Sequence record: PV714130 | Direction: 5' to 3' (one strand) | DNA: 40,625 bases | Source of the DNA: Escherichia phage Pipis | In this document: one piece after another, positions 565 through 938 of the stretch | How the letters are laid out: every line of letters starts with the position of its first letter | How positions within the stretch are numbered: position 1 is the stretch's first letter | Notes under the pieces: generated by a model | The model's database searches: none | What the model was told of the DNA's origin: nothing | Seen by the model: the letters and a program-made list of their open reading frames with translations, nothing else | Made by a program: the position numbers and the translations under genes

Positions 565-621
565 GACTAACTACAGGGCCTTTGAGTCTACATCTGAAGG
601 CCCTGACTGATAGTCACTAAC
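565..621 (+). repeat. direct repeat copy 1 (possible RNase III site / leader element)
   Basis: GACTAACTACAGG ... GGCCCTGACTGATAGTCACTAAC; recurs at 888-938 with one indel in the 22 bp core. Confidence 0.7.
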
Positions 622-628
622 TTAACGG

Positions 629-883
629 ATGGACACTATGAAACATTTAAGCACAATCACTAATCGCAATGAAGTATTCGTGAACACTAAAGGTTATGCG
701 TGGATTCAGCTTAAAGAGATGAGAGGAGCGCGTCACCGTGTGGTAGTTCGCAAGGTATCAAGCAAGCAGTTCAGCAACTACAGCGTCGATACTGTGCGTA
801 TAGACAACGAGACATACCTGATAGACGCGCAGATAACCGTGAGTCCTACAGTGGGCGTCTCAGCTCCTTATTTCGCTAACTGA
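629..883 (+). CDS. hypothetical early protein (84 aa), first ORF of the early region
   Basis: ORF on the coding strand downstream of the candidate host promoters; no recognisable motif; flanked by the duplicated element. Confidence 0.45.
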   Translation: MDTMKHLSTITNRNEVFVNTKGYAWIQLKEMRGARHRVVVRKVSSKQFSNYSVDTVRIDNETYLIDAQITVSPTVGVSAPYFAN

Positions 884-887
884 GAGT

Positions 888-938
888 GATTAACTACAGG
901 TCGTTAGACTGATAGCGGCCTGACTGATAGTCACTAAC
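888..938 (+). repeat. direct repeat copy 2
   Basis: GATTAACTACAGG ... GGCCTGACTGATAGTCACTAAC, immediately upstream of the Ocr-like gene. Confidence 0.7.

Follow-up and report, generated by a model that had tools for sequence, protein, structure and literature searches.

Small early genes exchanged between RNase III-type hairpins upstream of ocr in K1F-like phages

Phage T7 reportedly carries early RNase III processing sites, designated R0.3, R0.5, R1, R1.1 and R1.3, which Dunn and Studier are said to have described in 1983, and T7 early mRNAs are as a rule built as an open reading frame (ORF) with a similar R site on either side. Lambdoid morons, a concept that goes back to Juhala and Hendrix, come with a promoter and a terminator of their own, and prophages often express them. 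In T4-type phages, mobile regulatory cassettes known as promoter-early stem-loops (PeSLs) have been described (Arbiol et al. 2010, PMC2839356; Comeau et al. 2014, PMC4122927). The T7 sites R0.5 and R1.1 also serve as mRNA insulators in synthetic biology (PMC3643576), and Lamassu/DdmABC-dependent death can be set off by RNase III palindromes of the T7 type (PMC11707656).

The stretch of DNA analysed here (hereafter the window) is the 40,625-nucleotide record PV714130 of Escherichia phage Pipis, a K1F-like phage of the genus Kayfunavirus (Studiervirinae) and a relative of T7. Its positions 400-1500 are 92-99% identical to K1F-like phages, with matches in 214 phage records. An earlier note on this DNA drew attention to a duplicated element that flanks a small ORF just upstream of the Ocr-like gene. 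We propose, with a probability of roughly 0.8, that the two repeats are T7-type RNase III hairpins in the early transcript made by the host polymerase, that leader, ORF and trailing hairpin together constitute an exchangeable cassette, and that the hairpin arms serve as the homology for recombination. T7-style RNase III sites, and gp0.2 as an annotated orphan family, were known already, and what is added to them is a modest advance, namely the behaviour of the slot. Within the searchable literature, outside which the K1F genome paper lies, we found no account of RNase III-site-bounded cassette exchange in T7-like phages, nor one of gp0.2 function.

In architecture the elements in the window match T7 R0.3, R0.5, R1, R1.1 and R1.3, with an upper stem of about 10 bp set off from a lower stem by an asymmetric internal loop, and they have the motifs AGTGAT..ACxxAGGTC ... 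GGCCTxxxTGATxxTCACTAAC in common with them. As in T7, they belong to the transcribed strand and separate early genes from one another, and the first of them follows the host promoters and precedes ocr. Gene 0.2 is absent from T7, which has a single site before gene 0.3, whereas here there is an extra gene together with an extra site; moreover, the upper stem of the first site (A) is longer here (64 nt in all), and no RNase III-type site was found directly 5' of gene 1 in the window (covariance model R1, see below).

PeSLs resemble the present elements in that repeated short intergenic regulatory motifs flank small non-essential ORFs of unknown function (PMC2839356, PMC4122927), and in that the breakpoints of insertions, deletions and replacements between close relatives fall within the motifs, recombination between motifs being the proposed driver. 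Here, too, the repeated motif lies at the breakpoints of indels, replacements and permutations. PeSLs, however, comprise a sigma-70 promoter and a terminator stem-loop, whereas the elements described here have neither promoter-like hexamers nor a terminator tail of T residues and are situated inside one long transcript; likewise, PeSL mini-circles have been shown experimentally, whereas the slot is described from sequence comparison. The element is PeSL-like in its evolution and stands outside the PeSL family. With lambdoid morons the locus has in common an extra dispensable gene, equipped with its own expression signal, between genes that are adjacent in relatives, but the cassette here consists of a leader with a ribosome-binding site and a processing hairpin and uses the early promoter of the phage.

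Layout of the early left end

The features of the window on which the argument draws are listed below, with scores for the more distant sites given for two covariance models (R1 and R2) that are described in the next section.

421..450, + strand: candidate sigma-70-type early promoter (TTGACA-18-TAATAT, 10/12 matches in a consensus scan)
561..624, + strand: hairpin A, putative promoter-proximal T7-type RNase III site (fold and covariance models)
638..883, + strand: gene 0.2 (81 aa), small basic all-beta protein of the K1F gp0.2 / phrog_10124 family
884..941, + strand: hairpin B, putative cassette-trailing T7-type RNase III site (fold and covariance models)
967..1470, + strand: Ocr-like anti-restriction gene, 167 aa (Pfam PF08684, E 1.1e-29, residues 8-94; phrog_2568)
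1467..1619, + strand: gene 0.35, 50 aa, T7 gene 0.4-like (phrog_5058)
1614..1669, + strand: third RNase III-type hairpin, at the position equivalent to T7 R0.5 (model R1 57.3 bits; model R2 38.8 bits, E 1e-8)
5328..5386, + strand: family member 3' of the RNA polymerase gene, T7 R1.1-like position (model R1 42.6 bits; model R2 41.5 bits, E 1.7e-9)
12546..12599, + strand: family member in the middle (class II) region (model R1 43.6 bits; model R2 53.9 bits, E 3e-13)
37233..37289, + strand: family member towards the right end, at a position like that of T7 R18.5 (model R1 52.9 bits; model R2 49.3 bits, E 8e-12)

The promoter candidate occupies a position analogous to that of T7 A1-A3, upstream of R0.3. 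The two copies of the repeat are present as the earlier note described them, copy 1 (565-621) reading GACTAACTACAGGGCC...GGCCCTGACTGATAGTCACTAAC and copy 2 (888-938) reading GATTAACTACAGGTCG...CGGCCTGACTGATAGTCACTAAC, with element boundaries that the covariance model places at 561-624 and 884-941. The 3' arm, CCTGACTGATAGTCACTAAC, is the same at 20/20 bases in both copies (602-621 and 919-938) and is absent from the rest of the window even when 3 mismatches are allowed; shuffled sequences lead one to expect 0.02 matches, and at least two matches occurred in 0/100 shuffles. The 5' arms agree at 14/16 bases, while A and B show no sequence relationship in the middle 20-30 nt, from which the upper stem and loop are built. 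A weak third 'copy' at 875-894 proved to be no more than the overlap between the last part of the ORF and the 5' arm of copy 2.

The ORF of 84 aa (629-883) that the note placed between the copies exists as the longest reading frame, but the true start of gene 0.2 is likely to be the ATG at 638, giving 81 aa, because the PHROG profile begins at residue 4, because K1F gp0.2 and its homologues in other phage families begin with MKHLS or MKKLS, and because GGATGGA lies just upstream. Its stop codon, TGA (881-883), directly adjoins the 5' arm of hairpin B, GAGTGATTAAC. The claim that T7 has no gene at this position is correct insofar as no T7 gene lies between the early promoters and gene 0.3, but the ORF is no novelty, being already annotated as gene 0.2 in K1F.

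The Ocr-like gene has a leader of its own (ACAT..AACTTTGAGAGGATATAACT ATG) and is the conserved anchor on the 3' side of the variable slot. Gene 0.35, whose counterpart in PP328844 is annotated 'similar to gene 0.4 protein from T7', overlaps the ocr stop; covariance model R1 finds no hairpin between the two, and ocr and gene 0.35 are one processing unit. On the 3' side of gene 0.35 follow the third hairpin, the 5' arm of which (GAGTGATAAAC) contains the gene 0.35 stop codon, then three small ORFs, and then the T7-type RNA polymerase gene (2327-5008).

Hairpin folds and the RNase III-site family

Folding the repeat as RNA, a check that the earlier note had proposed, yields hairpins for both copies (z about -5). 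Hairpin A folds at -26.5 kcal/mol (z -5.0 against shuffles); about 8 bp make up its lower stem and about 12 bp its upper stem, and the internal loop between them is asymmetric. Hairpin B folds at -23.8 kcal/mol (z -5.0) on the + strand but, owing to three G-U pairs, at only -12.9 kcal/mol (z -0.9) on the - strand, and this strand-specific fold points to an RNA element. In the minimum-free-energy folds of both copies the internal loop and a single isolated pair come between a stem of about 8 bp and one of 10-12 bp, so that each copy has the imperfect pairing of about 20 bp, in two stems around an asymmetric internal loop, that marks an RNase III site. The T7 hairpins can be aligned well with the copies in sequence, and a consensus structure common to both copies and the T7 sites carries compensatory changes at 11/16 pairs of the mixed alignment.

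Since an Rfam scan of 1-8000, at E up to 1, returned no described family, covariance models were built for the purpose. Model R1 derives from the mixed alignment, with the sites at 5328, 12546 and 37233 outside its training set, and model R2 was built only from T7 R0.3, R0.5, R1, R1.1 and R1.3. The positions of these five T7 sites are presumed ones, at which hairpins do occur; the T7 records searched list no RNase III features. In the window model R1 picks out six sites, each of them on the + strand, and model R2 detects exactly the same six, again on the + strand only, at E values of 3e-13 to 2e-7 and with nothing else significant. Hairpin A scores 65 bits with model R1 and 35.9 bits with model R2 (561-622, E 8e-8), and hairpin B scores 68.8 and 34.6 bits, respectively (881-939, E 2e-7). 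Judged by model R2, which is built on these presumed T7 coordinates, both copies are alike to T7 RNase III sites in sequence and structure, and the suspicion voiced in the note that the repeat might be an RNase III-type site is borne out by this T7-only model, which places both copies in the family.

All 64 of the 64 model matches in 43 related loci lie on the + (gene) strand, and, as with the 6/6 sites of the window, their position is intergenic on the transcribed strand. The alignment of the relatives, which is itself fitted to the model, has 95.9% of its cells paired and double changes at 14/16 pairs, a level that 0/500 shuffles reached and that controls with a slid structure approached to no more than 48%. 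Within the family, the arms of A and B (14/16 and 20/20) are closer to one another than either is to the four other sites of the window, which share 8-13/16 bases with A and B in the 5' arm and, in the 3' arm, 9-13/20 for three of the sites and 12/20, counted by eye, for the site at 5328.

We conclude that both copies are putative T7-type RNase III processing sites at which cleavage is predicted. The T7 R0.3 cut, which we take to fall between UAU and GAU at 890/891, served as the template, and alignment to R0.3 places the predicted cut of hairpin A at 608/609, after U608, and that of hairpin B at 925/926, after U925.

Cassette exchange in the slot upstream of ocr

The window was compared with a modest sample of relatives, consisting of 41 IMG/VR loci anchored on Ocr together with K1F, 216Ecol046PP, ECG4, PM129 and one Przondovirus. 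What lies between the first hairpin and ocr varies among them, as follows.

Empty: 7 K1F-like and 7 KP32-like loci; one hairpin, promoter-proximal in type (A for the K1F-like loci, C for the KP32-like ones)
gp0.2: the window, K1F (L001), 216Ecol046PP (L002), L011 and Klebsiella Przondovirus phage 175019; two hairpins
58/59-aa phrog_20418 ORF: L008, L013, L018, L019 and L031; two hairpins
43-aa ORF: L016 and L026; two hairpins
92-94-aa phrog_9817 ORF (X): L040; two hairpins
X and gp0.2: Vec13 (L009), PM129 and ECG4; three hairpins
T3-type SAMase ORF: L039; two hairpins

Three more loci have a single hairpin and no insert and were left out of the hairpin typing. In the insert-free K1F-like relatives, hairpin A stands alone and is joined directly to the ocr leader, and 14/14 typed insert-free genomes have the promoter-proximal hairpin type, an observation that fits a never-inserted state as well as it fits deletion. 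Each inserted ORF has its own leader and its own trailing hairpin, which is B-type in Kayfunavirus, and the gp0.2 of one Przondovirus is placed between that genus's own two hairpin types. Before ocr there is always one hairpin more than there are inserted ORFs, presumably because a gene placed between R0.3 and ocr would part ocr from its processing site unless the cassette carried a site of its own. Even genomes that are equally distant in their backbone (the first 300 nt of ocr being about 90% identical) differ in insert content. The hairpin A type occurs in 177 phage records and hairpin B at 70 places in 60 phage records, ten of which have two B copies; an IMG/VR scan for hairpin B added just two further loci. 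As in the case of gp0.2, the SAMase of L039, of the type of the T3 SAM hydrolase (gene 0.3), lies between the first hairpin and ocr and is followed by a trailing hairpin, so that a known anti-restriction gene is seen to be among the occupants of this slot.

The relatives also bear on what the earlier note had made of the repeat. It had named as a refutation a ubiquitous single-copy leader without polymorphism of the ORF, and the comparison of ORF presence and element copy number revealed such polymorphism instead. Its phrase 'a module with its own processing site' turns out to be the best-fitting wording, with one hairpin where there is no insert and two or three where there are one or two ORFs, but the suggestion that the element was duplicated when the ORF was inserted has to be abandoned. 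Hairpin B is no fresh copy of A; it is a hairpin type with a different upper stem, and in relatives the same hairpin B stands behind three ORFs that are unrelated to one another.

All junctions coincide with the edges of the hairpin, immediately after GTCACTAAC and at (T)AGTGATTAAC. All that lies 5' of GTCACTAAC is hairpin, and the bases that follow mark the downstream module, with TTAAC... leading into gp0.2, TTAAAT... into the 58-aa ORF, AACCT... into X and ACAT... into ocr. The ORFs end in or against the 5' arm of their hairpin (e.g. gp0.2 in TGA-GAGTGATT, X in TAC-TAG-TGATT, and the 58-aa ORF in CAG-TGA-TT). In Vec13 the order is A-X-B-0.2-B-ocr and in PM129 and ECG4 it is A-0.2-B-X-B-ocr, such that the X and gp0.2 modules are permuted while the linker hairpins are identical. 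The first hairpin of L011 and PM129 is chimeric, combining a B-type 5' arm with an A-type upper stem, and the last hairpin of ECG4 contains an internal tandem duplication of ACAGGTCGTTAGACTG, which looks like the footprint of recombination within the hairpin. The spot 5' of ocr is a slot in which small genes have been gained, lost, replaced and reordered exactly at the hairpins.

It could be held that the hairpins are RNase III sites and nothing else, that their likeness reflects descent and constraint, and that genes are exchanged by illegitimate recombination tolerated in the spacers, with no part played by the hairpins. T7's own sites are, after all, alike without a known role in recombination, and the constant promoter-proximal hairpin of insert-free genomes could represent the ancestral state. 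We nevertheless consider this explanation unlikely, given that breakpoints are nucleotide-exact at hairpin edges for four unrelated ORFs, that two modules occur in opposite orders with identical linker hairpins, that A/B chimeras and an internally duplicated hairpin exist, and that the 3' arms of A and B are the same at 20/20 bases as against 9-13/20 at other sites of this genome.

A function in terminating or attenuating transcription, by which the inserted gene would be insulated, would agree with the label 'terminator' that MZ726794 gives to hairpin B and with the stable, GC-containing stem-loops of both copies, but we regard it as highly improbable. The sequences 3' of the stems, CACTAACTTAACGG and CACTAACACATAAT, contain no T-run and lack the character of an intrinsic terminator, a terminator scan of 1-2400 found 0 T-run or terminator-like sites, and their scores place the hairpins in the T7 RNase III-site family. 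Moreover, the early transcript must cross the hairpins to reach gene 1, because the scan of 1-2400 found no second sigma-70-like site of strength similar to that at 421-450. Just as little credence can be given to reading the repeats as traces left in the DNA by a mobile element that brought in the ORF, such as a target-site duplication, a homing site or a pair of transposon ends: direct repeats do flank an ORF that is missing from some relatives and whose family is present in unrelated phage families, but the cassette consists of an 81-aa ORF only, with no transposase, homing endonuclease or other mobility gene, the repeat centres (20-30 nt) are wholly different, the repeats are structured hairpins with compensatory changes and with G-U pairs suited to the transcribed strand only, the other four of the six members of the hairpin family in the window have no polymorphic ORF, and in non-T7-like phages the ORF occurs without these hairpins.

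According to the cassette reading that we prefer, the early transcript probably starts at the promoter-like sequence at 421-450 and would read through hairpin A, gene 0.2, hairpin B, ocr with gene 0.35, and the third hairpin towards gene 1. Host RNase III would make one cut per hairpin, on the 3' side of the internal loop, at the positions suggested by homology to T7 R0.3 (after U608 and U925). These cuts would release a monocistronic gene 0.2 mRNA of about 317 nt with a 29-nt leader and a protective 3' hairpin, and the cut in hairpin B would provide ocr with a processed 5' end of its own; from what is known of T7, each processed unit would have a defined 5' end and a protecting 3' hairpin. 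The location of the breakpoints suggests that the conserved arms offer 13-20 nt of homology to the phage recombination system. We infer that recombination takes place at the hairpin arms, whereby cassettes might be inserted, deleted, replaced or reordered, as has been proposed for T4-type PeSLs.

Gene 0.2 and other occupants of the slot

The product of gene 0.2 matches phrog_10124 over its full length (E 3.5e-39, residues 4-84, profile positions 1-77 of 77) and is 94% identical to the gp0.2 of K1F, in which gene 0.2 is annotated (AM084414). Homologues were found by tblastn in 118 phage records, and the carriers include Kayfunavirus, Przondovirus, phiKT-like Ermolevavirus, N4-like Gamaleyavirus and the 150-kb Phapecoctavirus. 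The family is a small one, with only 67 clusters recovered by profile search among 5.8 billion proteins and 0 of them with a Pfam domain. Among close relatives dN/dS is 0.13-0.6, a range based on few substitutions, and it rises to 0.94 in the comparison with ECG4. A stronger argument than dN/dS for a real protein is that the full-length ORF is kept, at 36-70% identity, between phage families, and gp0.2 is a real, conserved, phage-only small beta protein.

Searches with gp0.2 returned no Pfam match beyond the sub-threshold DUF2113, no match in PADLOC, none in a profile search of PDB, and only uncharacterised phage proteins in BFVD; there were no significant structural neighbours, and no profile or fold match linked it to characterised anti-defence or defence families. 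It differs from the T3-type SAMase that occupies the slot in L039 in having no sequence or fold likeness either to SAMase or to any characterised protein. An accessory role in host interaction or anti-defence, along the lines of the host-takeover or anti-defence factor for which the note made the ORF a candidate, may be guessed from context.

The gene 0.2 unit is the first of the early transcript and adjoins ocr, in a slot that in one relative is held by a T3-type SAMase.

For K1F-like and KP32-like phages, the comparison yields a rule by which small early genes are swapped 5' of ocr as leader-ORF-hairpin units with nucleotide-exact junctions. The slot furnishes a set of short orphan early proteins (gp0.2, phrog_9817, phrog_20418 and the 43-aa ORF) for anti-defence and host-takeover screening. 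It is also a natural insulated insertion site, in which therapeutic phages directed at the K1 capsule could carry payload genes. Each extra cassette may, on the other hand, add a trigger for Lamassu/DdmABC, a possible cost of extra hairpins.

We tentatively advance a broader reading, to which we give somewhat less than even odds. In this combined account, the RNase III hairpins of Studiervirinae would double as portable homology linkers, a T7-family counterpart of the T4 PeSLs, and the interval from the first site to ocr would be an exchangeable accessory slot with SAMase, gp0.2, phrog_9817 and phrog_20418 among its occupants. gp0.2 itself would be an early protein of new fold that acts on a host or defence system and moves among T7-like, N4-like, phiKT-like and Phapecoctavirus phages by docking between the repeated intergenic elements of each family.

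The possibility that the hairpins travel with gp0.2 into unrelated phages was also considered and was rejected, with 0 matches to the hairpins in phiWec190, phiKT and St11Ph5. gp0.2 is found in early regions of unrelated phages as well, and in N4-like Gamaleyavirus it lies in the early left-end region.

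Stop codons and length variation in the processing hairpins

In the T7-type RNase III hairpins of this region, the 5' arm sequence (T)AGTGAT(T/A)AAC includes stops in two reading frames (TAG/TGA and TAA), at the following sites:

Window 881-894: stop codons and 5' arm, hairpin B
Window 1611-1624: stop codons and 5' arm, third hairpin
L008 (a related locus) 2414-2424: stop codons and 5' arm
L009 (Vec13) 1200-1212: stop codons and 5' arm

The stop codon of gp0.2, the 81-aa early protein encoded before ocr, adjoins the hairpin 5' arm, and those of gp0.35, the 58-aa phrog_20418 ORF and ORF X (the 92-94-aa phrog_9817 ORF) lie inside it. 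T7 gene 0.4 and the RNase III site R0.5 are arranged likewise.

Promoter-proximal hairpins are systematically longer than those that trail a cassette. In some first hairpins, extra sequence inserted into the upper stem brings the length to 87 nt (L006 821-907 and L014 716-802), and the upper part of the type C first hairpin of KP32-like loci (L047 1378-1464) is long and possibly branched. In ECG4 (MN218775), the upper stem of the hairpin before ocr (L049 1371-1441) contains a tandem duplication of ACAGGTCGTTAGACTG, and the middle hairpin (L049 1022-1079), which scores 40.6 bits and folds at -15.6 kcal/mol, is degraded.

From ocr to the RNA polymerase gene

In the 167-aa Ocr-like protein (window 967-1470), the match to the Pfam ocr domain is confined to residues 8-94, and most relatives match over residues 1-103/110 only, with full-length matches in a few (L004-L006 and the relative PM129). 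From these alignments, the C-terminal 55-60 aa seem to form a module of their own that is polymorphic and fused to Ocr. Beyond it, 3' of the third hairpin, a hydrophobic 29-aa ORF (MSVGYWVCLAPVIWMIGYGLYDCIKRKSL; window 1685-1774), shorter than the cut-off of the ORF list, was read by eye from the sequence. That list holds no homologue of gene 0.7 (kinase) between ocr and gene 1, the RNA polymerase gene.

In T7, the RNase III site R1 lies directly before gene 1, whereas covariance-model scans found no RNase III-type hairpin directly 5' of gene 1 here (window 2230-2326). This interval contains short repeats and a phage-promoter-like sequence, CACTATAGGAC, which adjoins copies of the repeated motif GACTYAAGGTCTAAGAC / GACTTTAAGTGAAAGAC:

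Window 18-34: motif copy at the extreme left end
Window 2253-2269: motif copy just 5' of the RNA polymerase gene
Window 2290-2306: motif copy just 5' of the RNA polymerase gene

Hairpins and gp0.2 in other phage records

Near-identical A or B hairpins, the pair flanking gp0.2, occur in phage records PQ520054, PV615262 and MZ726794, the last of which annotates hairpin B as a 'terminator'. Among the names of records with such hairpins are 'Enterococcus phage IME_EF3' (7.8 kb) and 'Acinetobacter phage vB_Aba_01KA', which probably reflect mislabelled hosts or contamination.

A gp0.2 homologue (L045 1501-1746; L045 is LC739539 123364-126606) was also observed in phiWec190, a 150-kb Phapecoctavirus, within a row of small ORFs (L045 1406-3202). 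Between the small ORFs of this row lie five copies of a ~90-nt intergenic cassette, every one comprising TTGACA-17-TAnnnT, a GC-rich stem-loop (GGGCGGCAATGGTGCCGCC) and a ribosome-binding site (AAGAGAGA). The repeated unit appears to be a promoter-stem-loop cassette of PeSL type in a phage outside the T4 group.
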